Program-made: the position numbers and the translations under genes
Shown: one piece after another, positions 1-10,708 of the stretch
How positions within the stretch are numbered: position 1 is the first letter of the stretch
Layout: each line of letters opens with the position of its first letter
Notes under the pieces: generated by a model
Database searches by the model: none
Told to the model about the DNA's origin: nothing
What the model saw: only the letters and a program-made list of their open reading frames with translations
Source of the DNA: an uncultured Spirochaetales bacterium
GTDB lineage: Bacteria; Myxococcota_A; UBA9160; JAFDDA01
Direction of reading: 5' to 3'
NCBI GenBank assembly: GCA_964474935.1
Contig: CAYYUT010000065.1
Span: 1-10,708 of the forward strand
DNA: 10,708 nt

Positions 1-1490
1 AGACCGAGGTCCACACCCCGGCGGAAGCCACCGAGAACTTCGATCTGATCACCAACGAGAAGGGCGCATCGGTGGTGCGGATGCTGGAGCGCTATCTCGG
101 CGCGAACCGCTTCCGCAAGGGGGTGCGCCGCTACATCCGGAAGCATCGGCTCGGGAATACCGTGGCGGCCGACCTGTGGAACGCGCTCTCGGAGGCCTCG
201 GGCGAAGAGGTCGAGCCGGTGGTGCGGGCCTGGATCGAACAGAGCGGTTTCCCGGTGGTGTCCCTGACCCGCAAACGGGGCCGCGGCGGACCGCGCATCC
301 GGGTACGCCAGGAGCGCTTCCACGCCCGCAAGCCGCGGCGCCGTGTGCGCCAGCGCCCGTGGCCCGTCCCGTTGGTGCTTCGGATCCAGGGAGCGCGAGG
401 CCGGGCGACGCGGATCGAGCGCAAGCTCGTCACGGGGGCGCGAGACGAGGTGGTTCTCGCGCGCGCTGCGCCGGGCTTCGTCCATGGGAACGCGGACGCT
501 GGCGGCTTCTACCGCACCCTGCACGAGCCCGCCGAGCTCTCGGCCCTGGCGGCCGGGCTCGATGCGCTGACACCGCTCGAACGGATGGCGCTCATCGGCG
601 ACCAGTTCGCGCTGCTCCGCGCGGGCCGTGCTCCGCTCGCCGCCTTCCTCGAGCTGGCGGCCGCCTACGGAGGCCAGACCGACCCCGACGTGCTCGTGGC
701 GGTCCGCGGTCCGCTCGCCACCCTGTCCGAACGGCTCGGCCCGGCGGTGGGCGACGAGGTCGAGGCGGTGCTCCGCAGCTGGATGGTGCGCCAGTTCGGC
801 GACCAGATCCTCGCGCTCGGCTGGGAACCCGAGCGGGGCGAGGACGAGGCCACGCGCGTGCGACGGAGCGTGGTGGTGGAGATCCTCGGATCGCTGGCCG
901 AGTGGGAGGCGGTGGTGGACTCGGCGCGCGAGCGCTGCGAGGCCTATCTCGACGATCGCCGCTCGCTCGAGCCGAATCTGGCCGACCCGGTGGTCGCGAT
1001 CGCGGCGCGAAACGGCGACGGCAAGCTCTACCGGCGGTTCCAGGCGGCGGCCCGGGAGGCCGCGACACCCCAGGAGCGACGCCGCTTCCTGATGGCGCTC
1101 GGGGCCTTCCGCGACCGGAAGCTCGTAGCGACGACCCTCGAGGCGTCCCTCGGAAACGAGATCCCCACCCAGGACGTGGCCATCCTGATCGCTCGCATGC
1201 TCGCGAACCGCAGCGCGCGCGACGCCACCTGGCGCTTCGTGAAGCGGCACTGGACGGCGCTGCGCGAGCGGATGCCGCCCATGCTCGTCACCCGCGTCAT
1301 CGATGCGCTCCCGGAGCTCGGGGGCAGGGCGAACCGCCGGGACGTCGCGGCCTTCTTCAAACGCCACCCGGTGCCGACCGGCGCACGCGCCCTCGTCCAG
1401 GCCCTCGAACGCTTCGACATCGACGAGGCCTTCCAGCGCAAGGCGGGACCAGAGCTCCGGCGTTGGGCGCGCCTCGAGACCGGAAGCTAG
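1..1490 (+). CDS. pepN: M1-family zinc aminopeptidase (aminopeptidase N-like), C-terminal ~496 aa; 5' end lies outside the window
   Basis: The frame is open from nt 3. Its translation (TEVHTPAEATENFDLITNEKGASVVRMLERYLGANRFRKG...) matches the conserved 'FDxI(S/T)YxKGAxVLRML' segment that follows the catalytic domain of M1 peptidases. An ERAP1_C-like, Leu/Ala-rich helical C-terminal domain follows, up to the stop TAG at 1488-1490. The HExxH-(18)-E motif would lie upstream of the window. The pepN symbol is a family-level guess. Confidence 0.88.
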   Translation, partial: TEVHTPAEATENFDLITNEKGASVVRMLERYLGANRFRKGVRRYIRKHRLGNTVAADLWNALSEASGEEVEPVVRAWIEQSGFPVVSLTRKRGRGGPRIRVRQERFHARKPRRRVRQRPWPVPLVLRIQGARGRATRIERKLVTGARDEVVLARAAPGFVHGNADAGGFYRTLHEPAELSALAAGLDALTPLERMALIGDQFALLRAGRAPLAAFLELAAAYGGQTDPDVLVAVRGPLATLSERLGPAVGDEVEAVLRSWMVRQFGDQILALGWEPERGEDEATRVRRSVVVEILGSLAEWEAVVDSARERCEAYLDDRRSLEPNLADPVVAIAARNGDGKLYRRFQAAAREAATPQERRRFLMALGAFRDRKLVATTLEASLGNEIPTQDVAILIARMLANRSARDATWRFVKRHWTALRERMPPMLVTRVIDALPELGGRANRRDVAAFFKRHPVPTGARALVQALERFDIDEAFQRKAGPELRRWARLETGS

Positions 1491-2614
1491 TCGGTCCCCG
1501 CACCGCCCGGGCCGCCGTCCGGAGGAGGCGGCGGCGGCGGAGGCCCCTGGAACAGGGGCGCGAGCGCGGGCACCGCGCCGGCCGGCTGCCAGCCCGTGAG
1601 CCCCGCGGTCCAGACGAGGGTCTGCGGACCCACGCGCCCTCCGGCGATCGCCTCGGCCAGGGCCGCCTGCTCGACCGCGAAGCTCTGACCGTTCTCGGCG
1701 ACGTACCACGAGGGCAGCTGGGGCAGCGGCGGCGGACCCGCCGGGGCCGCGGTCGGCGCGCCCCCGCCCGGCACCGTCTGGGCGTAGGCCATCCCCATCC
1801 CGAGCCCCACGCCGGCGCCGGCCAGTCCGCCGGCCGGGTTGGCGGCGGCCACCGGGGTCGCGGCTCCGATCTGGAACTGCTGGTAGCGGGCCAGGTCGCC
1901 CACCACGTTCATGCCGGTCCGGGCGTCGAGCGCCTTCTCGACCTCGGGCGGAAGCGAGATGTTCACGATGTAGAGCTGGGGCAGGTCGAGCCCGAACTCG
2001 TCGTCGATCTTGGACACCACCCGCTTGCGCAGCTCTTCGGACAGGGCGCGGTAGTTCTCGGCCAGGTCGAGGGCCGCCACGTCGGCGCTCGCCACGAGCT
2101 CGGCGAAGGCGTGGTTGATGATCGACCGGATCAGCTCGCTGATCTCGTCGGTCTCGAACGACGAGTCGGCGCCGACCAGCTCGTTCAGCAGCGCGCGGGG
2201 ATCGATCGCCCGCAGCGTGTAGGTCCCGAACGCCCGCAGCCGGATCGGTCCGAAGTCGACGTCGCGCATCATCACCGGGTTGGGCGTACCCCACTTCAGA
2301 TCGGCGATCTGGCGCGTGCTGGTGAAGTAGACCTCGGCCTTGAAGGGGCTGTCGAAGCCGTACTTCCAGCCGGCCAGCGTGCTCAGCACCGGGAGGTTCT
2401 TCGTCTCGAGTCGGTACTGACCGGGGCCGAAGACGTCGGCCACCCGGCCCTCGCGCACGAAGATCGCCTGCTGACCCGGCCGCACGATGAGCTGGGCACC
2501 GTATTTGATCTGGTTGTGGTACCGCGGGAAACGCCAGACGAGGGTGTGGCGGCTGTCGTCGATCCATTCGACGACATCGATCAGCTCACCGCGCAGTTTG
2601 TCCATGAAGCCCAT
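1487..2614 (-). CDS. SPFH/Band-7 family protein (Band_7_1/COG4260-like) with C-terminal GYF_2 (DUF4339-like) domain and Pro8 tail; 375 aa
   Basis: The ORF track extends to 2746, but the real start is the ATG at 2614 (MGFMDKLRGELIDVVEWIDDSRHTLVWRFPRYHNQIKYGAQLIVRPGQ...). It is preceded by GGAGG (+ strand 'cctcc' at ~2623-2627, 8-nt spacer). The N-terminal 250 aa match the Band_7_1 consensus (VWRFP...IKYGA.LIVRE.Q.A.F...G...D.FGPG.Y.L.T.N.P.L..L.GWKYGF.SPFKAEVYF). The C-terminus SWYVAENGQSFAVEQAALAEAIAGGRVGPQTLVWTAGLTGWQPAGAVPAL matches the GYF_2 consensus (WY...GQ..GP.....L.....G.I...TLVW..GM..W.PA..VP.L). It is followed by PPPPPPPP. Confidence 0.9.
   Translation of the reverse strand: MGFMDKLRGELIDVVEWIDDSRHTLVWRFPRYHNQIKYGAQLIVRPGQQAIFVREGRVADVFGPGQYRLETKNLPVLSTLAGWKYGFDSPFKAEVYFTSTRQIADLKWGTPNPVMMRDVDFGPIRLRAFGTYTLRAIDPRALLNELVGADSSFETDEISELIRSIINHAFAELVASADVAALDLAENYRALSEELRKRVVSKIDDEFGLDLPQLYIVNISLPPEVEKALDARTGMNVVGDLARYQQFQIGAATPVAAANPAGGLAGAGVGLGMGMAYAQTVPGGGAPTAAPAGPPPLPQLPSWYVAENGQSFAVEQAALAEAIAGGRVGPQTLVWTAGLTGWQPAGAVPALAPLFQGPPPPPPPPDGGPGGAGTD
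1520..1545. repeat. Short GGN/GGC trinucleotide tract (ggaggaggcggcggcggcggaggc) encoding the Pro8 run at the C-terminus of the SPFH-GYF protein
   Basis: Read directly from the sequence. (GGC)4 is flanked by GGA/GGC repeats; the reverse complement encodes PPPPPPPP. Confidence 0.8.
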
Positions 2615-2622
2615 GGGTCGAT

Positions 2623-2627
2623 CCTCC
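2623..2627 (-). promoter_or_regulatory. Shine-Dalgarno (GGAGG) for the SPFH gene, inside the 16-nt gap after the Zn-ribbon gene stop
   Basis: The reverse complement of 2615-2630 is accGGAGGatcgaccc, followed by ATG (2614). This supports the internal ATG as the true start rather than the upstream in-frame ATG at 2746, which overlaps the preceding gene. Confidence 0.7.
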
Positions 2628-2630
2628 GGT

Positions 2631-3482
2631 TCAGTCGAGTAGGGAGATGATGAGATCGAGCGCGCTGCGGCCGAACCCCCCAGCCCCTCGATTGGATTCG
2701 AGCCTGCCTGCGTGGGCGAGCCGGTGGAACTCGTGGGCCACGGCACGGGTCTTGCGTTCCTCGTCCCGCGTCGGTGTGGCGTCGCCTCCGTGGTCCACGA
2801 TGAAGCCCGCGATCTCTTCGAGCTCGTCGGCGTCGAGCCAGGTGCCGTGATCGTGACAGCGATCGATGATCACTCCCGAGCTGCGCCGGAAGTTCCGGCG
2901 ATGCATGAATGCCTCGCAGACGGGGCACTTTCGGTAGTGCACACCGCGGGCGACCGGGTTCCCGCCCACGCGCCGCGGCGCCAGCCGCTCCCGCTCCCCG
3001 GGCGTTCGCTTGCGCAACGAATCGACCGCCCGGTTCACCAGCGTCTCGAAGTGATCGCCGGGTACCCAGAGACCGTTGCAGGAGGGGCATTCGTTGGTTG
3101 GGAGCTCGCCGATCGAGCGGACCGGCATCAGACCGCCACAGCAGGGACACGGCAGCTCACGGCCCTCGACGAGCGGTTGGGGATCGAAGGCAACGCCGCA
3201 TGCCGTGCAGAAGCGCGAGTGCTCGGCGTTTCGCGCGAAGCACTCGGGGCAGATCGTCGATAGCGCCTCCTCGTCGCGAACCAGGCTCCCACCGCAGTAC
3301 GCACAGACCTCGGTGTCCCCCGTGACGCTGGCTCCGCACGACCCGCAGCGATGGATGGGCTTGTCGACGGGCGTCTGGGGTCGGTTCGCGATGGACGCCC
3401 CGCAGCTGCAGGCGACGAACTCCTGCACGACATGGGTCACGTCGTACTGCCGATGGCAGTCGGGGCAGGCGACGAGGCGCAC
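2631..3482 (-). CDS. Multi-zinc-ribbon protein (283 aa): three double-CxxC ribbons followed by two zf-TFIIB-like (PF13453-like) zinc-ribbon modules and an acidic/helical tail
   Basis: Cys pairs are CPDC..CSC, CGSC..CAYC and CPEC..CTAC. Two further modules match the zf-TFIIB pattern: CPCCGGLMPV...ECPSCNGLWV, and CPVCEAFMHRRNFRRSSGVIIDRCHDHGTWLDADELEEI, the latter with His in place of one Cys. The GTG start at 3482 directly abuts the pilT stop (TAG, 3483-3485). A GAGGGG SD-like sequence lies 7-12 nt upstream in the mRNA. There is no ATG until residue ~118, so the GTG start is likely. Confidence 0.8.
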   Translation of the reverse strand: MRLVACPDCHRQYDVTHVVQEFVACSCGASIANRPQTPVDKPIHRCGSCGASVTGDTEVCAYCGGSLVRDEEALSTICPECFARNAEHSRFCTACGVAFDPQPLVEGRELPCPCCGGLMPVRSIGELPTNECPSCNGLWVPGDHFETLVNRAVDSLRKRTPGERERLAPRRVGGNPVARGVHYRKCPVCEAFMHRRNFRRSSGVIIDRCHDHGTWLDADELEEIAGFIVDHGGDATPTRDEERKTRAVAHEFHRLAHAGRLESNRGAGGFGRSALDLIISLLD

Positions 3483-4547
3483 CTAGGCCCCTCGTACGAG
3501 CGGCTCGAAGCGCCCCTTGTCGTGCGCCTTCGACATCGCCTGCTGCGGATCGACCCGCCCTTCCTTGGCCAGCGCGAACAGGGCATCGTCCATGGCCTGC
3601 ATTCCAACGTTCCGGCCCGACTGGATCAGCGAAGTCAGCATCGGGGTGATCCCCTCGCGCACGAGGTTGGGCAGGCCGGAGGTCCGCAGCAGGATCTCGT
3701 GGACGGCGACCCGTCCCGCGCCGTCGGCCGTCGGCAGCAGCAGCTGCGACACCACGGCGGCCAACGAATCGGCCAGCGACATCCGCACCTGGGCCTGCTG
3801 CTCGGCCGGGAACGCGTCGATCACCCGGTCGATGGTCTTGGCCGCGCTGTTGGTGTGGAGGGTCCCGAATACGAGAGAACCCATCTCGGCCGCCGTGATG
3901 GCGAGCGAGATGGTCTCCGGGTCGCGCATCTCGCCCACCAGGATGATGTTCGCGTCCTGGCGCACGACGGCCCGGAGCGCACCGGCGAACCCGTCGGTGT
4001 GGGCGCCCACCTCGCGATGCGAGAAGACCGAGCCGCGGCTCTCGTGGACGAACTCGACGGGGTCCTCGATCGTGACGATGTGCTTGGCATGATCGCGGTT
4101 GACGCGGTCGATGATGGCCGCGAGGGTCGTGCTCTTGCCCGAACCCGTGGGCCCGGTGACGAGGACGAGCCCCTTCTCGAGATTCGCGAGCTCGGCGACC
4201 GCATCCGGCAGGCCCAGGTCCTCGGCGGGAATGATCTGTTCCGGGATGATCCGGAAGACGGCGCCGGCCCCGTTCTCCTGCATGAAGAAGTTGGCGCGAA
4301 AGCGTGCGATCCCCGGAAGCCCGTACGCGAAGTCGAGATCTCCCCCGGTCGCGAAACGGTCCCACTGATCGGGCTCGGCGATCTCTGCGAGCAGCGAACG
4401 GACCGCCTCGTCGCTGAGGAGCGCCTCTCCGTCGATCGGTTCGAGGGCACCCTTGGCCCGGATCCGCGGCTCGCGTCCGGCGGCCAGATGGAGGTCGCTG
4501 CCCTTCCTCTCCTTGAGCATCGTGAGCAAGCGATCGATCTCGGCCAT
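3483..4547 (-). CDS. pilT: Type IV pilus retraction ATPase PilT (354 aa)
   Basis: MAEIDRLLTMLKERKGSDLHLAAG... gives the PilT N-domain 'SDLHL' motif. Walker A is LVTGPTGSGKSTT and Walker B is VTIEDPVEF. The Asp box is ILVGEMRD and the His box is TLHT. The C-terminal GLPNLVREG is a diverged AIRNLIRE motif. The length is typical of PilT. ATG at 4547 is preceded by GGGAGG (10-nt spacer), which overlaps the stop of the upstream gene. Confidence 0.95.
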   Translation of the reverse strand: MAEIDRLLTMLKERKGSDLHLAAGREPRIRAKGALEPIDGEALLSDEAVRSLLAEIAEPDQWDRFATGGDLDFAYGLPGIARFRANFFMQENGAGAVFRIIPEQIIPAEDLGLPDAVAELANLEKGLVLVTGPTGSGKSTTLAAIIDRVNRDHAKHIVTIEDPVEFVHESRGSVFSHREVGAHTDGFAGALRAVVRQDANIILVGEMRDPETISLAITAAEMGSLVFGTLHTNSAAKTIDRVIDAFPAEQQAQVRMSLADSLAAVVSQLLLPTADGAGRVAVHEILLRTSGLPNLVREGITPMLTSLIQSGRNVGMQAMDDALFALAKEGRVDPQQAMSKAHDKGRFEPLVRGA

Positions 4548-4550
4548 CGG

Positions 4551-6083
4551 TCAGCGACCTCCCGCGAAACGCTTCGAATCGTTGGCGTGCAGCCGGGCTT
4601 CATCGGCGCTGATCGTCCCGGACCTCACCAGCTCGGTGAGCGAGTCGTCGAGCAGGCACATGCCCTGAGCCGCGCCGGTCTGGAGGATCGAGTGGATCTG
4701 GACCGTCTTGTTCTCGCGGATCAGGTTCCCGATGGCCTTGTTCACCACCATCACCTCGAGCGCGGGAACCCGGCCCGTTCCGTCCGCCTTCGACACCAGA
4801 CGTTGCGAGACCACCCCCCGGAGCGACTCGGACACCATGCTCCGGATCTGGCTCTGCTGGTTCGGCGGAAAGACGCCCACGAGCCGGTTGATCGTGCCGA
4901 TCGCGGAGTCGGTGTGGAGGGTCGCCAGGACGAAGTGGCCGGTCTCGGCGGCCGTGAGGGCCAGTGAGACCGTCTCGAGATCGCGGAGCTCGCCGATCCC
5001 GATCACGTCGGGATCCTCGCGGAGCGCCGCCCGAAGGGCGCGTGCGAACGATTCGGTGTGGCCCCCCACCTGGCGTTGGTTCACCAGGCAACGCTTCGAT
5101 GCGTGGAGGAACTCGATCGGGTCTTCGATCGTGATGATGTGATCGCTGCGGTCCTCGTTCACGATGTCGAGCAGGGCCGCCATGGTCGACGACTTGCCGC
5201 AGCCGGCCGGTCCGGTCACCAGCACCATTCCCTGATGGAAGCCCGTGAAACGCGCGAGCGTGCTGGGAAGACCGAGCTCCTCGAGGCCCGGGGGAGCGAT
5301 CGGGATGGCCCGGAACACCCCGTCGACGCCGTGCTGCTGTCGGTACACGTTGCACCGGAACCGGGCCACGCCGTCCAGGGTGTAGGCGAAGTCGATCTGG
5401 CCCTGCGTCTCGAGCTGCTCCCACTGCGCCGTCGAGAGCGCGTCCCGGAACATCGACTCACAGGCAGCGGCTTCGAGGGGAGCGTCTCCCGACGTCTCGA
5501 GCTTTCCATGACGACGCATCCGAAGTGCCGAACCGGCATGGATGTGGTGATGGCTGGCGCCGGCCTCGACGGCCTTGCGCAGCAGCCCGGCGAGCCGCTC
5601 CGAACGCTCGGCCGGGCGGCTCGCCGTAGACGCCGCGAGACCGGCGGGCGGGCTCGCTTCCGGGACGGCCCTCACGGACGCGTCCGGACTCCGTGGCGCG
5701 GCCGCGGGCGGCGACGACCCGGCAGCCACGGGGGATGGCGCGCGCGTCGCGCCCGCTCCGCCCGGCGGATCGGGCGGCGGGTTCGCGGGGCGCGCCGACT
5801 CGGGCCTCGCAGTCGGGTCGGGGGCCCGGGAAGCGCCCGCGGCGGCCGACCCCGAGGCGGACTCCGTGGCGCGGGACGCCCGCGACTTCACCAGCATGTC
5901 GCGCTGGATCTGGAGCAGCCGATCGAGCTGCTTCTGGGTGACCCAGCCGTGCTCCATCATGAGCTCGCCGAGCCGGTGCTCGGGCGGCTGATCCGCCAGC
6001 ACCTGCTCGAGCTGGTCCTTGCGGATGAGCTTGTAGTGGACGGCGAGTCGTCCGAGAAGCGGTGCGCGCGACAGGTCGGCCAT
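4551..6083 (-). CDS. PilT-family ATPase paralog with N-terminal MshEN/T2SSE_N-like domain (predicted c-di-GMP binding) and ~95-aa disordered Pro/Ala/Ser-rich linker (510 aa)
   Basis: The ORF track runs to 6851, but the in-frame ATG at 6083 (MADLSRAPLLGRLAVHYKLIRKDQLEQVLADQPPEHRLGELMMEHGWVTQKQLDRLLQIQ) has an AGGAAG SD 6 nt upstream. Sequence upstream of 6083 translates to Arg/Pro-rich junk. The N-terminus has two tandem 24-aa motifs matching the MshEN consensus RLGxxLLxxGxIxxxxLxxALxxQ. Then comes a low-complexity linker (ASGSAAAGASRAPDPTARPESARPANPPPDPPGG...). A full PilT core follows: GASHHHIHAG corresponds to 'SDLHL'. Walker A is LVTGPAGCGKSST, Walker B is ITIEDPIEF, the Asp box is IGIGELRD and the His box is TLHT. 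AIGNLIRENKTVQI is a near-canonical AIRNLIRE motif. Confidence 0.9.
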   Translation of the reverse strand: MADLSRAPLLGRLAVHYKLIRKDQLEQVLADQPPEHRLGELMMEHGWVTQKQLDRLLQIQRDMLVKSRASRATESASGSAAAGASRAPDPTARPESARPANPPPDPPGGAGATRAPSPVAAGSSPPAAAPRSPDASVRAVPEASPPAGLAASTASRPAERSERLAGLLRKAVEAGASHHHIHAGSALRMRRHGKLETSGDAPLEAAACESMFRDALSTAQWEQLETQGQIDFAYTLDGVARFRCNVYRQQHGVDGVFRAIPIAPPGLEELGLPSTLARFTGFHQGMVLVTGPAGCGKSSTMAALLDIVNEDRSDHIITIEDPIEFLHASKRCLVNQRQVGGHTESFARALRAALREDPDVIGIGELRDLETVSLALTAAETGHFVLATLHTDSAIGTINRLVGVFPPNQQSQIRSMVSESLRGVVSQRLVSKADGTGRVPALEVMVVNKAIGNLIRENKTVQIHSILQTGAAQGMCLLDDSLTELVRSGTISADEARLHANDSKRFAGGR

Positions 6084-6463
6084 GCCGCTTCCTATCGGAC
6101 TCCGCGCAGTCGGCGTTGAGCGCCACGACGCGGAACGCATGCCGTCGCGCGCGGCCCGACGCGATCCGGCCGGGATCGCGGGGCACCCGGGCCGGGCGGG
6201 GGCATCGGACGCATCGCGAGACCACTTCCCGAGGCGGCAAGCGAGACGCGATCCGTCGGCAGGCGACGGACGGAGCGGAGCGAACCCGCACATGGGGTGG
6301 GGCTCGGCCTGTCGCGGGATCGGATACCCTCGTCGTATGCGCCGGATCGTGACGGCCAGCTTCGGAAGCGACATCGTCCGCATCCCTCCGGACCCGCCGA
6401 ACCGGTTCGAGCCGCTGCACGTGGAGCTCGATCCCGCGCTCGAGCCGTTCCGGGAAGCGAACC
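6084..6463. promoter_or_regulatory. Divergent intergenic region (~380 bp) between the PilT-cluster first gene (-) and the ABC-class ATPase gene (+); presumed to hold both promoters
   Basis: There is no credible ORF here; the only 131-aa ORF is Arg/Pro-rich and overlaps both gene starts. The region contains an 8-bp-arm palindrome CGCGATCC-ggccg-GGATCGCG at ~6160-6180 and a second inverted repeat CCGTCG-gcagg-CGACGG at ~6252-6268. No sigma70-like -35/-10 pair is recognisable by eye, which is expected for a high-GC genome. Confidence 0.5.
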
Positions 6464-8251
6464 ATGCGGAGCGTTGAGGCGCTCTCGCAGGCCCTCCGCC
6501 GCCTCGACGGACGCAGCTACAAGGGCTACCGCGAGCTCGAGGGCGGCTGGGCGGGACGCGACTTCGAGCTCTTCCTCGACCACGCCCAGGGTGATCCCTT
6601 CGCCGCGCCCTCGAGGCTCCGCGTCCGGATTCCGATGCGCCGCGCCGATCTCCCGCGCGACCTGTTCGACCGTCCCGTCCGGCGTCTGGCCCTCGCCGAC
6701 TTCCTGGCGCGTCGCACCGCCCGGGCGATCGACGCCGGTCGCGGTCGGGGACGGGGCTCGGGACGCAGCGGACGCATCCGCATCGACAGCGGCGGAGCCG
6801 CGGTGCTGGCGCGCAGCGCCGTGCGCCTCGAGGACGACTTCGTCGAGGCACGGCTCGAGGCGGGGCTCCCGGCCGCCGGTCGTCGGATTCTGGGCGGCGA
6901 GGCCGACGCCCTGCTCACCGAGGCCCTCCCGGAGATCGCGCGACGCGGCCTCGAGGCGAGTGCGCTGCCCGAGACCGAAGCGCGCGAGTTCGTCGAGTGC
7001 GTCGAGAACCAGGAGTTCCTGCGCGCGCACCTCGGAGAGCTCGGGCTCGTGGCCTTCGTCGCGGATGGCTCCCGCCTGCCGCGTCTGTCGGGCGTCACCG
7101 AGCGCCCGCTCGCATGGGACCGGACCGTTCCCTTCGAATCGCCCGACTCACTCCGCGTCTCGGTCGAGCTTCCCCACCCGGTGCGCATCCGGGAACGCGA
7201 GCCGAGCCGGGAGGTCCGCGGCATGGGCGTCCGGCGAGGCATCACCCTGGTGGTGGGGGGCGGCTATCACGGCAAGTCGACCCTGCTGCGCGCCCTCGAG
7301 CGGGGCGTACACCCCCACGTACCGGGAGACGGGCGCGAGTACGTCGTGAGCGATCCCGACCTCGTGAAGGTCCGGGCCGAGGACGGACGCCGCATCGAAC
7401 GGGTCGACATCAGCGCCTTCATCGGTCGGCTGCCGCAGGGACGCGACACCCGCGTCTTCTCGAGCAACGACGCCAGCGGCAGCACGAGCCAGGCCGCCAG
7501 CATCGTCGAGGCGCTCGAAGCCGGGGCCCGCGTGCTGCTGCTCGACGAGGACACCTCGGCCACGAACTTCATGATCCGCGATGCCCGGATGCAGGCCCTG
7601 GTACCGGACGGCGACGAGCCCATCACCCCCTTCCTGGATCGCATCGAAGCGCTGCGCGATCGGCTCGGCGTCTCGACGGTGCTCGTGATGGGCGGTTCGG
7701 GCGACTACTTCGACGTGGCCGATCACGTGATCCAGATGCGCGGCTACCGGGCGATCGACGTCACGGCGAGAGCCCGGAGCATCGCGAGCGAACATCCCAC
7801 GCGGCGCCGGCGCGAGTCATCGGGCGAGCTCACCCCACCCGCGCCCAGGGCACCGCTCGCCGCGAGCTTCGATCCGGAGCGTGCACGCGGGCGGATCCGG
7901 ATCGAGGCGCGGTCGCGACACACGATCGGGTTCGGAGACGAGCGCATCGAGCTCGGAGCCCTCGATCAGCTGGTCGACCGGAGCCAGACCCGGGCCATCG
8001 GACGAGCCCTCCATCTCCTCGGCCGGCGCTGGGTGGACGGCACCCGGTCGCTCGGAGTACTCCTCGACGCGCTCGAAGCCGAGCTCGATGCCCGCGGGCT
8101 CGACGTGCTCGCGTCACCCATGGGTCGCCAGGCCCCGGACACGGATGAGAACGCGCATCCCGGAGATCTCGCCCGTCCGAGGCGCCACGAGATCGCGGCA
8201 GCGATCAACCGCCTGCGATCCCTGCGCGTGCACTCGGACCCGTCCGAGTGA
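6464..8251 (+). CDS. Uncharacterised 'ABC-class ATPase' family protein (PF09818/COG3044-like), 595 aa
   Basis: The N-terminus (LRRLDGRSYKGYRELEGGWAGRDFELFLDHAQGDPFAAPSRLRVRIP) matches the conserved start of the predicted ABC-class ATPase family. Walker A is VVGGGYHGKSTLL, Walker B is ARVLLLDEDTSATNF, and a signature-like SNDASGS sits between them. The only in-frame start after the upstream stop (6350-6352) is ATG 6464. A weak SD (GGGAAG) is present. Confidence 0.85.
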   Translation: MRSVEALSQALRRLDGRSYKGYRELEGGWAGRDFELFLDHAQGDPFAAPSRLRVRIPMRRADLPRDLFDRPVRRLALADFLARRTARAIDAGRGRGRGSGRSGRIRIDSGGAAVLARSAVRLEDDFVEARLEAGLPAAGRRILGGEADALLTEALPEIARRGLEASALPETEAREFVECVENQEFLRAHLGELGLVAFVADGSRLPRLSGVTERPLAWDRTVPFESPDSLRVSVELPHPVRIREREPSREVRGMGVRRGITLVVGGGYHGKSTLLRALERGVHPHVPGDGREYVVSDPDLVKVRAEDGRRIERVDISAFIGRLPQGRDTRVFSSNDASGSTSQAASIVEALEAGARVLLLDEDTSATNFMIRDARMQALVPDGDEPITPFLDRIEALRDRLGVSTVLVMGGSGDYFDVADHVIQMRGYRAIDVTARARSIASEHPTRRRRESSGELTPPAPRAPLAASFDPERARGRIRIEARSRHTIGFGDERIELGALDQLVDRSQTRAIGRALHLLGRRWVDGTRSLGVLLDALEAELDARGLDVLASPMGRQAPDTDENAHPGDLARPRRHEIAAAINRLRSLRVHSDPSE

Positions 8252-9843: not shown

Positions 9844-10708
9844 TCAGCCGAGACCGGCGAATGCGGCGTCGAGGAGCGCGCCCTGCCTCTCGCGGTGCAC
9901 CCGGGCGGAACCTCCCGCCGGGCTCGCGGCCTCCCCGCGACCGGCGTAGCCGAGGCGCTGCTCCGGGCGCAGCACGTCTCCGATCCGCTCACGGACGAAG
10001 CTCCAGGCGCCCATGTTGGACGGCTCCTCCTGGACCCAGAGGACCGTCTCGGCCTGCAGATAGCGTCGCACGGCCGCGGCCACCTCGACGGAGGGCCACG
10101 GGTAGAGCTGCTCGACCCTCACGATCGCGACGTCGCCGGCGGCGTCGGGACCGACCCGCTCGACCCGCTGGTCGCGCCAGTCGAGCAGCTCGTAGTAGAC
10201 CTTCCCGGTGCAGAGCAGCACGCGCTTCACGCGGTCGGGCCGCGGGGCGGTGTGGTCGTCGTCGATCACGCGTTGGAAGCGACCGCGTACGAGCTCGTCG
10301 GGAAGCGAGGTGGCCCGCGGGTTTCGCAGCAGGCTCTTCGGAGTGAAGACCACCAGGGGGGCCCGCCATCTCCGCAGCATCTGGCGACGCAGCAGATGGA
10401 AGTACTGGGCCGGCGTGGTGGCGTTCACCACCTGCAGGTTGTCCTCGGCGCAGAGCTGCAGGAACCGCTCGAGGCGCGCGCTCGAGTGCTCGGGGCCCTG
10501 GCCTTCGTAGCCGTGCGGGAGGAGCATCACCAGACCGCTCATCCGCTGCCACTTCACGTGCGCCGACGCGATGAACTGGTCGATGATCACCTGGGCGCCG
10601 TTCGCGAAGTCGCCGAACTGGGCCTCCCACATCACGAGGGCCCGGGGCTCGGCCATCGCGTAGCCGTACTCGTAGCCGAGCACGCCGCACTCCGAGAGCG
10701 GGCTGTCC
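9844..10708 (-). CDS. sucA: 2-oxoglutarate dehydrogenase E1 component, C-terminal ~288 aa; the gene starts beyond the window end
   Basis: The frame is open to the window edge. The translation ...DSPLSECGVLGYEYGYAMAEPRALVMWEAQFGDFANGAQVIIDQFIASAHVKWQRMSGLVMLLPHGYEGQGPEHSSARLERFLQLCAEDNLQVVNATTPAQYFHLLRRQ... is the highly conserved C-terminal region of SucA/OdhA E1 (compare E. coli SPLSEEAVLAFEYGYA...WEAQFGDFANGAQV...LLPHGYEGQGPEHSSARLER). The 'M' at 10683 in the ORF track is an internal GTG. Confidence 0.92.
   Translation of the reverse strand, partial: DSPLSECGVLGYEYGYAMAEPRALVMWEAQFGDFANGAQVIIDQFIASAHVKWQRMSGLVMLLPHGYEGQGPEHSSARLERFLQLCAEDNLQVVNATTPAQYFHLLRRQMLRRWRAPLVVFTPKSLLRNPRATSLPDELVRGRFQRVIDDDHTAPRPDRVKRVLLCTGKVYYELLDWRDQRVERVGPDAAGDVAIVRVEQLYPWPSVEVAAAVRRYLQAETVLWVQEEPSNMGAWSFVRERIGDVLRPEQRLGYAGRGEAASPAGGSARVHRERQGALLDAAFAGLG

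Follow-up and report, generated by a model that had tools for sequence, protein, structure and literature searches.

Probable operon fusion of a PilT-family ATPase pair with a zinc-ribbon/SPFH-GYF gene pair in an uncultured bacterium

Gene content and layout of the locus

The window, i.e. the whole stretch of DNA that was analysed, is a complete metagenome-derived contig of 10.7 kb (10,708 nt; Table 1). Four genes, here called A, B, C and D, occupied the minus strand from 1487 to 6083, with intergenic gaps of 3 nt (A–B), 0 nt (B–C) and 16 nt (C–D). A, B and D started with ATG and C with GTG, and the starts of A and C matched those of their homologues. Purine-rich motifs similar to Shine–Dalgarno (SD) sites preceded B (GGGAGG), C (GAGGGG) and D (GGAGGA). 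The coordinates and gaps of the four tightly packed genes, and the separate SD site for each downstream gene, were as described in an earlier note on this DNA.

The other window genes encoded the C-terminus of an M1 aminopeptidase, an ABC_ATPase, a TPR protein and the C-terminus of 2-oxoglutarate dehydrogenase (OGDH) E1. Pilin, PilB, PilC, PilMNOPQ and secretin genes were all absent from the window, and the previous description of the PilT genes as 'orphan' there agreed with the domain calls, which contained no pilus-machine gene. The GC3 was even over all eight genes (0.84–0.93) and thus gave no sign of foreign origin. The intergenic region between A and the divergent ABC_ATPase gene is the presumed promoter region of A–D, since it is the sole non-coding stretch upstream of all four genes. 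This region contained no match to an Rfam family or to the sigma-70 consensus. No terminator-like or sigma-70-like sites were detected between 1300 and 6600 in a scan that had low power at 70% GC.

Table 1. Features of the window and their coordinates.
Feature	Position	Strand	Description
M1 aminopeptidase gene, 3' part	3..1490	+	ERAP1_C, Peptidase_M1; convergent with D; frame open to base 3 (window edge)
Gene D, soluble SPFH protein, 375 aa	1487..2614	-	Band_7_1 (PF13421) + GYF_2 (PF14237)
Junction 2	1487..1490		CTAG, overlapping stops of D and convergent pepN
Poly-proline tail of D, aa 358–365	1520..1543	-	PPPPPPPP, after GYF domain
Gene C, cytosolic five-zinc-ribbon protein, 283 aa	2631..3482	-	DZR (PF12773); Zn_ribbon_TFIIB (PF13453) x2
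Junction 1 of the putatively relocated cassette	3480..3485	-	TAG stop of B abuts GTG start of C, 0-nt gap
Gene B, PilT-family ATPase, 354 aa	3483..4547	-	TIGR01420
Gene A, PilT-family ATPase, 510 aa	4551..6083	-	TIGR01420, T2SSE; N-terminal MshEN-like region and Pro/Ala-rich linker
Pro/Ala-rich low-complexity linker of A, aa ~66–161	5601..5888	-	19% Pro, 28% Ala
MshEN-like region of A, aa 9–60	5904..6059	-	Matches to NF053729, NfrB C-terminal region and motif regular expression
Intergenic region A/ABC_ATPase, divergent, 380 nt	6084..6463		Presumed promoter region
ABC_ATPase gene	6464..8251	+	PF09818 domain match; divergent from A

Genes A and B: a PilT-family pair

A and B exceeded the TIGR01420 (pilT_fam) cutoff of 319 bits, with 440 and 418 bits, respectively, and B shared 44% identity with the core of A. 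The nearest solved structures of A were PilT hexamers (3jvu and 2ewv, E ~1e-92). Walker A, Asp, Walker B and His boxes were retained in both proteins (in A, GPAGCGKS, ITIEDPIE, DVIGIGELRD and GHFVLATLHT, respectively). Additionally, A contained the motif AIGNLIRE, and in B the AIRNLIRE motif was degenerate and read LPNLVRE.

The N-terminus of A scored 37.9 bits (E 1.2e-9) against NF053729, a model of the MshE-type c-di-GMP motif with a cutoff of 38, and also matched the NfrB C-terminal region (E 7e-5). As in the MshEN of MshE/PilB/GspE-type ATPases and in NfrB (PMC5013675), it consisted of a tandem 24-residue motif region, in which the second motif (RLGELMMEHGWVTQKQLDRLLQIQ, aa 37–60) fitted the full consensus. 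Unlike in canonical MshEN, positions 1 and 10 of the first motif (aa 9–32) were degenerate, the spacer comprised 4 instead of 5 residues and the score was 0.1 bit under the NCBIfam cutoff. While MshE, PilB and GspE are extension ATPases, the MshEN-like region of A was carried on a PilT retraction-type core. A regular expression derived from the relaxed form of the motif in PMC5013675 matched motif 2 of A, and one motif was present in 84 of 120 A homologues. The MshEN-type motif probably provides A with a c-di-GMP input. The profile searches thus bore out the proposed identities of the pair as an MshEN-fused PilT and a PilT. Of the 14 A homologues listed as closest, 13 had linkers similar to the Pro/Ala-rich linker of A (16–22% Pro), and none of them was seen beside zinc-ribbon or SPFH genes.

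In all homologous contexts examined, A and B adjoined, between overlapping by 1 nt and lying 15 nt apart, and one natural A–B fusion protein was found (P0122, 818 aa). This constant, tightly spaced adjacency and the fusion protein suggest that A and B act together. By description, the pair resembled PilT/PilU tandems and Myxococcus xanthus MXAN_6705/6706, i.e. adjacent PilT/PilU-family genes located off the pil cluster. The two M. xanthus genes have neighbouring locus numbers and show high conservation among Myxococcales; the N-terminus of MXAN_6705 is long, with an extension called disordered, and deletion of MXAN_6706 leads to a partial S-motility defect (PMC13584747). A/B similarly was conserved as a pair across Myxococcota relatives, with a long N-terminal extension on the first gene product. 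In contrast to MXAN_6705, which was not in a published M. xanthus MshEN list, the extension of A and of most of its close homologues carried a conserved MshEN-type 24-residue motif.

Genes C and D: a zinc-ribbon and SPFH-GYF pair

Five ribbons were formed in C by 20 Cys/His ligands, which were invariant in 24 homologues. Three N-terminal ribbons (aa 6–95) were followed by two TFIIB-type ribbon-plus-helix modules (aa 112–165 and 185–231), a helix at the C-terminus and a Leu-rich tail that was conserved. The AlphaFold2 model had a pLDDT of 74.9, and no transmembrane (TM) segment was found in C. The sole related solved structure was ZifS of Thermus thermophilus (TTHA0897, PF13453, PDB 8yoz), with which C shared the TFIIB-type ribbon-plus-helix module (profile E 9e-6, Foldseek probability 0.96). 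ZifS is a single-module protein of 82 aa, whereas C had two such modules and three more ribbons. A literature search found no paper on ZifS function.

D contained a Band_7_1 domain (aa 26–236, 318 bits), a Gly/Ala-rich low-complexity segment and a C-terminal GYF_2 domain (aa 303–351, 44 bits) with a poly-Pro tail behind it. No TM segment was found in D, and a sequence search of solved structures returned no relative. Together with the PF12773 and PF13453 matches of C, these domains confirmed the earlier multi-zinc-ribbon and SPFH/Band-7-GYF calls. Most of the 40 D homologues listed (68 full-length homologues were recovered) had a PPPxP-type tail behind their GYF domain. In GltJ of M. xanthus, a bacterial GYF domain binds the proline-rich sequence of AglZ, and the zinc ribbon (ZnR) and GYF form a switch (PMC11135422). 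By analogy, the tail of D is a possible ligand of its GYF domain. GltJ, with its ZnR-linker-GYF arrangement, also resembles C/D in combining zinc ribbon and GYF in Myxococcota and in the use of a ZnR in protein–protein regulation. However, C/D carries the ZnR and GYF on two polypeptides, and GYF was located C-terminal to SPFH in D rather than N-terminal to a membrane receptor.

A second precedent is the pspA-ydjGHI (samGHI) operon of Bacillus subtilis, in which, as in C–D, a multi-ZnR gene precedes the gene of a Band-7/SPFH protein that is soluble, lacks a TM segment and contains a low-complexity region (PMC8581546, PMC11237479, bioRxiv 10.64898/2026.02.06.704340). In YdjG, two ZnRs are combined with an NTF2-like domain and a TM segment, and in YdjI a Band-7 domain is combined with a ZnR; membrane recruitment of YdjI requires YdjG and YdjH (PMC11237479, PMC8581546). 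Both C and YdjG started with a CPxC ribbon (MRLVACPDCH in C; MIISYKCPNC as read from the ydjG primer), but C had five ribbons, and D ended in GYF_2 and a poly-Pro tail instead of a zinc ribbon. The analogy is partial, since C lacks the TM segment and the NTF2-like domain and no PspA or YdjH/TPM gene was found near C–D. Additionally, the C–D dyad was found in MAGs of Myxococcota, Eisenbacteria and Gemmatimonadota, unlike samGHI, which belongs to Firmicutes.

Gene neighbourhoods in relatives

Of 79 informative GTDB loci from other species, 74 had the SPFH-GYF gene directly after the zinc-ribbon gene, with constant order and strand and a gap of 8–112 nt. Across these 74 loci, the SPFH part of D was 66–88% identical. 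This adjacency, together with the YdjG/YdjI precedent (PMC11237479, PMC8581546), upheld the proposal that the zinc-ribbon and SPFH genes are functionally linked. Among loci with 300 nt or more of sequence upstream of the pair, the flanks (up to 10 kb on either side) contained no PilT homologue in any of 76 at species level, nor in any of 11 additional contigs from close relatives. No other neighbour family of the zinc-ribbon gene occurred in more than 17 of 80 loci, and the commonest annotated neighbours of the pair were housekeeping or metabolic (DnaG, RpoD, GlnE, HisF and a pyridine-nucleotide oxidoreductase).

The closest A homologues (~60–62% identity) lay in the order OGDH – TPR – ABC_ATPase – A – B – convergent M1 peptidase, a backbone collinear with the window but without C and D. 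The M1 peptidase gene was convergent with PilT-B in loci L088–L092, L101 and L104. The divergent ABC_ATPase neighbour was found in L088, L090, L101, L102 and L104, and radical-SAM or other small genes intervened between the ABC_ATPase side and A in L090, L091, L102 and L104. For the closest MshEN-PilT/PilT pairs, six independent contexts were informative; in each of them a convergent gene came directly after PilT-B, and no zinc-ribbon or SPFH gene was present. In at least three metagenome samples (3300023199, 3300022725 and ERR3484147), both dyads occurred on separate contigs. The nearest sampled relatives were ~60% identical in A and 58–66% in C, and closer lineages outside this sample may have the fused layout as well.

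Synteny had been named beforehand as a test of the four genes as one module; the zinc-ribbon and SPFH homologues were not syntenic with PilT paralogues in the other loci examined, which makes the arrangement a one-off juxtaposition. The 76 loci and the backbones without C–D did not support a 'hard-wired' connection of the PilT ATPases to the products of the zinc-ribbon and SPFH genes. The separate conservation of the two pairs and the same backbone without C–D in relatives therefore point to a lineage-specific relocation of a C–D cassette to the 3' end of a conserved operon of PilT paralogues. The zinc-ribbon gene of relatives had its own upstream intergenic region of ~140–170 nt and a divergent neighbour. 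At the other end of the cassette, the CTAG overlap of D and pepN was the same as that shared by the PilT-B and pepN stops in L088. With the 0-nt B–C junction and the loss of the promoter region of C, co-transcription of A-B-C-D is plausible and their co-expression very probable in this genome, and the products may be functionally coupled in this lineage.

Alternative explanations

We consider it unlikely that the locus is a genuine lineage-specific four-component system, in which the SPFH-GYF and zinc-ribbon proteins, after the fusion, tether or regulate c-di-GMP-sensing PilT motors, e.g. through contact of GYF with the linker of A. The short gaps (0, 3 and 16 nt), the individual SD sites, the scan without an internal terminator-like site and the missing upstream region of C are consistent with such a system, as is the presence of a Pro-rich linker in A and a GYF domain in D, given that the GYF of GltJ binds Pro-rich sequences (PMC11135422). 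However, the A-B-C-D arrangement was seen once in ~90 loci. The Pro-rich linkers also occurred in A homologues that are not beside C/D and are therefore not specific to the fusion, and the conserved PPPxP tail of D homologues themselves would be a more economical GYF ligand. Fusions of unrelated genes into operons, moreover, are common and can be neutral.

Another doubtful reading takes C as a nucleic-acid-binding or transcription-related zinc-ribbon protein instead of an SPFH adaptor. It would fit the source annotation ('Zn-finger nucleic acid-binding protein'), the TFIIB-type Pfam names, a weak fold resemblance to RNA-polymerase zinc-ribbon subunits and the position of the dyad downstream of dnaG-rpoD in one clade. 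The fold matches were non-significant, however (best E 0.055, none reaching 0.001), C homologues were near-obligately adjacent to a soluble SPFH protein, and protein–protein contacts of ZnRs are known in YdjG/YdjI and GltJ (PMC8581546, PMC11135422).

An assembly artefact, i.e. a chimeric metagenomic contig joining two loci, is very improbable. The window is a whole contig and the search found no second contig with the same junction, but the backbone around the cassette was collinear, and a chimera would thus need two joins. Both joins fell exactly at stop or start codons with intact ORFs and SD sites, the GC3 was uniform, and relative to the same clade, C and D had diverged to an extent within the range of the backbone genes.

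An anti-phage defence or conflict system of the four genes or the C–D pair, a possibility listed in the earlier note, is highly unlikely. SPFH, zinc-ribbon and NTPase components do occur in some conflict systems, which gives a lead, but C and D had no PADLOC matches and A and B weak P-loop-level matches only, the dyad had constant housekeeping neighbours within clades (dnaG-rpoD, glnE, hisF) rather than lying in variable islands, and the SPFH part of D was conserved to a degree unlike that of fast-evolving defence genes.

Proposed origin and function

The locus thus probably represents an operon fusion of two two-gene units, each conserved independently, and not one four-part system. In this lineage, the C–D cassette would have moved, promoterless, into the precise site that separates the B stop codon from the convergent M1-peptidase gene. 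Since it arrived without a promoter region of its own, all four genes probably are transcribed from the region upstream of A.

By analogy with other SPFH proteins, D would form oligomeric assemblies under the membrane. C would act as a five-zinc-ribbon adaptor that recruits or regulates D, comparable to YdjG/SamG with YdjI/SamI in B. subtilis. The GYF domain of D probably binds a proline-rich sequence, which may be the conserved PPPxP tail of adjacent D subunits. A and B, tandem paralogues of PilT/PilU-family hexameric ATPases with their own conservation in related uncultured Myxococcota, would most likely drive retraction, in an accessory or conditional role, at a type IVa pilus machine whose genes lie elsewhere, with A probably responding to c-di-GMP through its MshEN-type motif.

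Gene content and layout

Four minus-strand genes of the window, which has a GC content of approximately 70%, encoded two PilT-family ATPases (A, with an N-terminal MshEN-like region, and B), a five-zinc-ribbon protein (C, the Zn protein) and an SPFH-GYF protein (D). The intergenic gaps A–B, B–C and C–D were 3, 0 and 16 nt, and Shine–Dalgarno-like motifs preceded B (GGGAGG), C (GAGGGG) and D (GGAGGA), so that the coordinates and motifs bore out the compact same-strand arrangement described in the earlier note. Co-expression of the four genes in the source genome is likely, because the B–C boundary leaves no space for a promoter. A consensus scan of positions 1300–6600 for promoters and terminators, which is weak at 70% GC, gave nothing. 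An Rfam scan over the full window (E ≤ 1) matched no family, and no c-di-GMP riboswitch was found in the 380-nt leader.

In a Pfam scan of the eight window genes, the remaining four encoded an M1 aminopeptidase (pepN), an ABC_ATPase, a TPR protein and an OGDH E1. No pilin, PilB/GspE, PilC/GspF, alignment complex or secretin gene was present among the eight, in agreement with the first reading of the sequence. The same type IV pilus and type II secretion genes were absent from the gene tables of the control loci L088–L104; one PilZ gene was located 6 kb away, in L100 only. No transmembrane segments were found in A, B, C or D.

Coordinates of the four genes and of the candidate MshEN-type region
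Feature	Position	Strand	Remarks
A	4551–6083	−	510 aa
Candidate MshEN-type region of A	5904–6059	−	aa 9–60
B	3483–4547	−	354 aa
C	2631–3482	−	283 aa, start GTG
D	1487–2614	−	375 aa

Genomic context of the zinc-ribbon genes

A profile scan for the Zn gene in one genome per GTDB species yielded 80 loci, which were examined together with up to 10 kb of flanking sequence. Every locus came from a metagenome-assembled genome (MAG). Most of these were labelled Myxococcota or 'Deltaproteobacteria', and the labels Eisenbacteria, Gemmatimonadota and Entotheonella also occurred; no cultured organism with the Zn–SPFH dyad was among these species-level loci. Several of the MAG labels (Spirochaetales, Opitutales, Geobacter) were implausible. 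In tblastn with all window proteins, the Zn gene had an SPFH-GYF gene as its immediate 3' neighbour at 74 of the 79 informative loci; the two never differed in strand and were separated by 8–112 nt (median 32 nt). This adjacency strongly supports the functional link between zinc ribbons and SPFH protein that had been proposed from the sequence. Five Zn genes were not followed by an SPFH gene (L044, L049, L051, L058 and L071, labelled Eisenbacteria/Eiseniibacteriota, Gemmatimonadota or unclassified bacterium); L051 carried an OsmC-like gene instead.

Upstream sequence of 300 nt or more was available for 76 loci, and of 5 kb or more for 58; tblastn detected no PilT gene within the flanks of any of them, and the same PilT queries found their targets in L088–L104, the positive control. 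JGI metagenome contigs of close relatives likewise had no PilT gene 5' of the Zn gene on any added contig. The earlier note had read A–D as one module, a reading to be given up if homologues of the Zn and SPFH genes were not syntenic with PilT paralogues in other genomes. Because no such co-occurrence was found (0/76 loci), the four-gene module is not supported.

When the ORFs around the Zn genes were clustered all against all, every other neighbour family was limited to 17 or fewer of the 80 loci. The commonest annotated neighbours were DnaG, RpoD, GlnE, HisF and a pyridine-nucleotide oxidoreductase. P0002–P0005, the closest Zn homologues for which context was available, shared the order divergent gene, an intergenic region of approximately 140–170 nt, Zn gene, SPFH-GYF gene and a small gene. 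The small gene encoded 132–141 aa with a lipoprotein-like N-terminal signal and no Pfam match (L023 12039–12440; L081–L087, 3' of the SPFH gene). It was rejected as a third core member, since it was confined to the closest clade and the window, like most loci, lacked it. In L081–L087 the dyad lay beside genes for a carbamoyltransferase, the small lipoprotein-like protein, a glyoxalase and DsbA, presumably the ancestral location of C–D.

Genomic context of the PilT pair

The nearest relatives of A had an identity of approximately 60–62% overall and 72–73% in the core. In five loci (L088, L090, L092, L101 and L104), A was followed by B with a 1-nt overlap to a 15-nt gap, and a convergent M1 peptidase gene directly followed B. 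A divergent ABC_ATPase gene lay 5' of the pair in four of the five (not in L092), and L088 contained the TPR and OGDH genes beyond it. This layout is the window backbone minus C and D. A stand-alone A–B pair also occurred in the more distant context L100, and samples 3300023199, 3300022725 and ERR3484147 each contained a C–D contig and a separate A–B contig. The divergent ABC_ATPase gene (PF09818/MRB1590-like; window 6464–8251) was seen 5' of the PilT pair in L088, L090, L101, L102 and L104, with a radical-SAM gene in between in several of these contexts. Its adjacency could be clade-level synteny or could mark a functional neighbour.

Junctions and origin of the combined layout

In L088, the stop codons of the PilT gene B and of the convergent pepN overlapped in CTAG (10619–10622). 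In the window, it was the stop codons of D and pepN that overlapped in the same palindromic CTAG (1487–1490), and the TAG stop of B (3483–3485) abutted the GTG start of C. The simplest reading of these junctions is an intragenomic relocation, in which a promoter-less C–D cassette would have moved within the genome into the 3' end of the A–B operon. TAG stands at both ends of the presumed cassette. GC3 was uniform across all genes, and the divergence of C and D from the same relative clade was in the same range as that of the backbone genes; on these grounds a foreign origin of C–D was rejected. A chimeric assembly joining two loci would likewise place the two dyads side by side, but it is unlikely, since two joins would be needed within a collinear backbone, each falling precisely on a codon boundary.

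A functional meaning of the co-expression of A–B and C–D is not supported and seems very improbable. It is just as doubtful that the fusion is adaptive, with C and D physically tethering or gating a candidate c-di-GMP-sensing PilT pair, for example through binding of the GYF domain to the proline-rich linker of A; retraction-type ATPases would then be used in a non-canonical way, anchored at a microdomain. The proline-rich linker of A is not supported as a specific ligand of this GYF domain, as 13 of the 14 nearest listed homologues of A had such a linker; D's own conserved PPPxP tail also disfavours it. The defence module suggested in the earlier note is very unlikely: a PADLOC-DB 2.0 scan of six window proteins returned nothing for C and D, and the matches of A and B were weak and at P-loop level.

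The PilT-type ATPases A and B

The PilT-family assignments were confirmed by TIGR01420 (PilT/PilU) scores of 439.6 bits for A and 418.1 bits for B, both over the cutoff of 319.1, and PilT hexamers were the nearest solved structures to both. A and B shared 44% identity. All boxes were intact in A (Walker A GPAGCGKS, Asp ITIEDPIE, Walker B DVIGIGELRD, His GHFVLATLHT) and in B (GPTGSGKST, VTIEDPVE, NIILVGEMRD and GSLVFGTLHT, respectively). The PilT-specific AIRNLIRE motif was kept at 7 of 8 positions in A (AIGNLIRE); the corresponding LPNLVRE of B was degenerate and PilU-like.

A and B were immediate, closely spaced neighbours in all contexts seen. In P0122, a protein of 818 aa from an 18.8-kb ENA contig, the two PilT types were naturally fused into a single chain, whose B-like part (residues 466–813) was 64% identical to window B. 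P0122 may represent either Rosetta-stone support for A–B cooperation or a lost stop codon. The single fused protein and the constant adjacency fit two ATPases acting together, like PilT and PilU. MXAN_6705 and MXAN_6706, candidate counterparts of A and B, were reported as highly conserved in Myxococcales in a 2026 study of M. xanthus, in which the long N-terminus of MXAN_6705 was described as disordered and deletion of MXAN_6706 caused a partial S-motility defect (PMC13584747).

The N-terminus of A scored 37.9 bits (E 1.2e-9) against the MshE-type c-di-GMP motif model NF053729, 0.1 short of the cutoff of 38. The relaxed MshEN motif consists of two tandem 24-residue copies of [RKPN]hGxxhhxx[GAS]hhxxxxhxxxhxx[QNKRYWST] (PMC5013675). 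Motif 2 of A (aa 37–60), RLGELMMEHGWVTQKQLDRLLQIQ, fully fitted this consensus. Motif 1 (aa 9–32), separated from it by a spacer of 4 aa, was degenerate, departing from the consensus at position 1 (L) and position 10 (K). One MshEN-type 24-residue motif was kept in 84 of 120 close homologues of A. No description of an MshEN–PilT fusion was found in the searchable literature, including PMC5013675 with its supplement and PMC8844925. MXAN_6705 was considered as an annotated MshEN protein and rejected, being absent from the M. xanthus MshEN listing in the supplements of PMC8844925 and PMC5013675.

The zinc-ribbon protein C and the SPFH-GYF protein D

C contained a DZR and two TFIIB-type ribbons (Pfam), and twenty invariant Cys/His residues accounted for five ribbons, as first read from the sequence. 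The family was well conserved (732 matches), and the nearest relatives of C were 58–66% identical; an exact-sequence look-up of window C gave no record. The 19-residue Kyte–Doolittle maximum was 0.95. An AF2 model (pLDDT 74.9) showed confident ribbon-plus-helix modules and C-terminal helices. ZifS (8yoz) was the only related solved structure, and a fold search with the model found, apart from the ZifS module, nothing but RNA-polymerase ribbon subunits below significance. No papers were found on ZifS 8YOZ or zf-TFIIB. The last 10 residues of C (2631–2663, alignment columns about 325–335) were Leu-rich and conserved, with the consensus SLLxLLxxLL, here ALDLIISLLD. This C-terminal peptide, predicted to be helical, is a possible docking motif or, alternatively, a tail for membrane binding.

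Matches of D to Band_7_1 and GYF_2 (Pfam) agreed with the proposed SPFH/Band-7-GYF architecture; a poly-Pro tail followed, and no Cys-rich motif was present. A PDB sequence search with D gave no match. Most printed D homologues carried a short PPPxP-type tail directly after the GYF domain (L002–L045; window 1520–1543). This tail is a candidate ligand of the protein's own GYF domain, by which subunits could be linked head to tail. Between SPFH and GYF, residues 269–291 (window 1742–1810) formed a Gly/Ala/Met-rich, glycine-zipper-like segment, AANPAGGLAGAGVGLGMGMAYAQ, which recalls the low-complexity region reported for YdjI.

In the B. subtilis pspA-ydjGHI/samGHI system, a published precedent for C–D, YdjG has two zinc ribbons, an NTF2-like domain and a transmembrane segment, and together with YdjH, a TPM-domain protein, it recruits the soluble Band-7 protein YdjI, which ends in a zinc ribbon, and with it PspA (PMC8581546, PMC11237479, bioRxiv 10.64898/2026.02.06.704340). 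Similarly, the soluble Band-7/SPFH protein D is encoded with the multi-ribbon protein C, the two genes being adjacent in 74 of 79 loci. Unlike YdjG, C is not membrane-integral, consisting only of ribbons and helices in the AF2 model. YdjH (TPM) and pspA are absent from the window, and no neighbour family exceeded 17 of the 80 Zn loci. D ends in GYF_2 and a PPPxP tail, whereas YdjI ends in a zinc ribbon. Bacterial GYF domains bind proline-rich sequence, a zinc ribbon lies adjacent in approximately 44% of GYF proteins from bacteria, and a zinc ribbon–GYF pair acts as a switch in GltJ (PMC11135422). In contrast to GltJ, in which both lie on one polypeptide with a flexible linker, the ribbons (C) and the GYF domain (D) are on separate polypeptides.

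Implications

Recognizing the four-gene layout as a one-off fusion removes the tempting false lead of a new PilT–SPFH machine and leaves two widespread, unstudied dyads, a PilT paralogue pair and a Zn–SPFH pair, whose implications are incremental rather than surprising. If c-di-GMP binds to the motif of A, a retraction-type motor would receive direct input from a second messenger, which so far is known for extension ATPases, and the conserved MshEN-type motif could also contribute to an explanation of the auxiliary PilT paralogues found in Myxococcota. The C–D pair, a minimal relative of B. subtilis SamG/SamI without transmembrane segment or PspA, combines zinc ribbons with SPFH and GYF domains and could help to narrow down the core role of the zinc ribbon–SPFH partnership.
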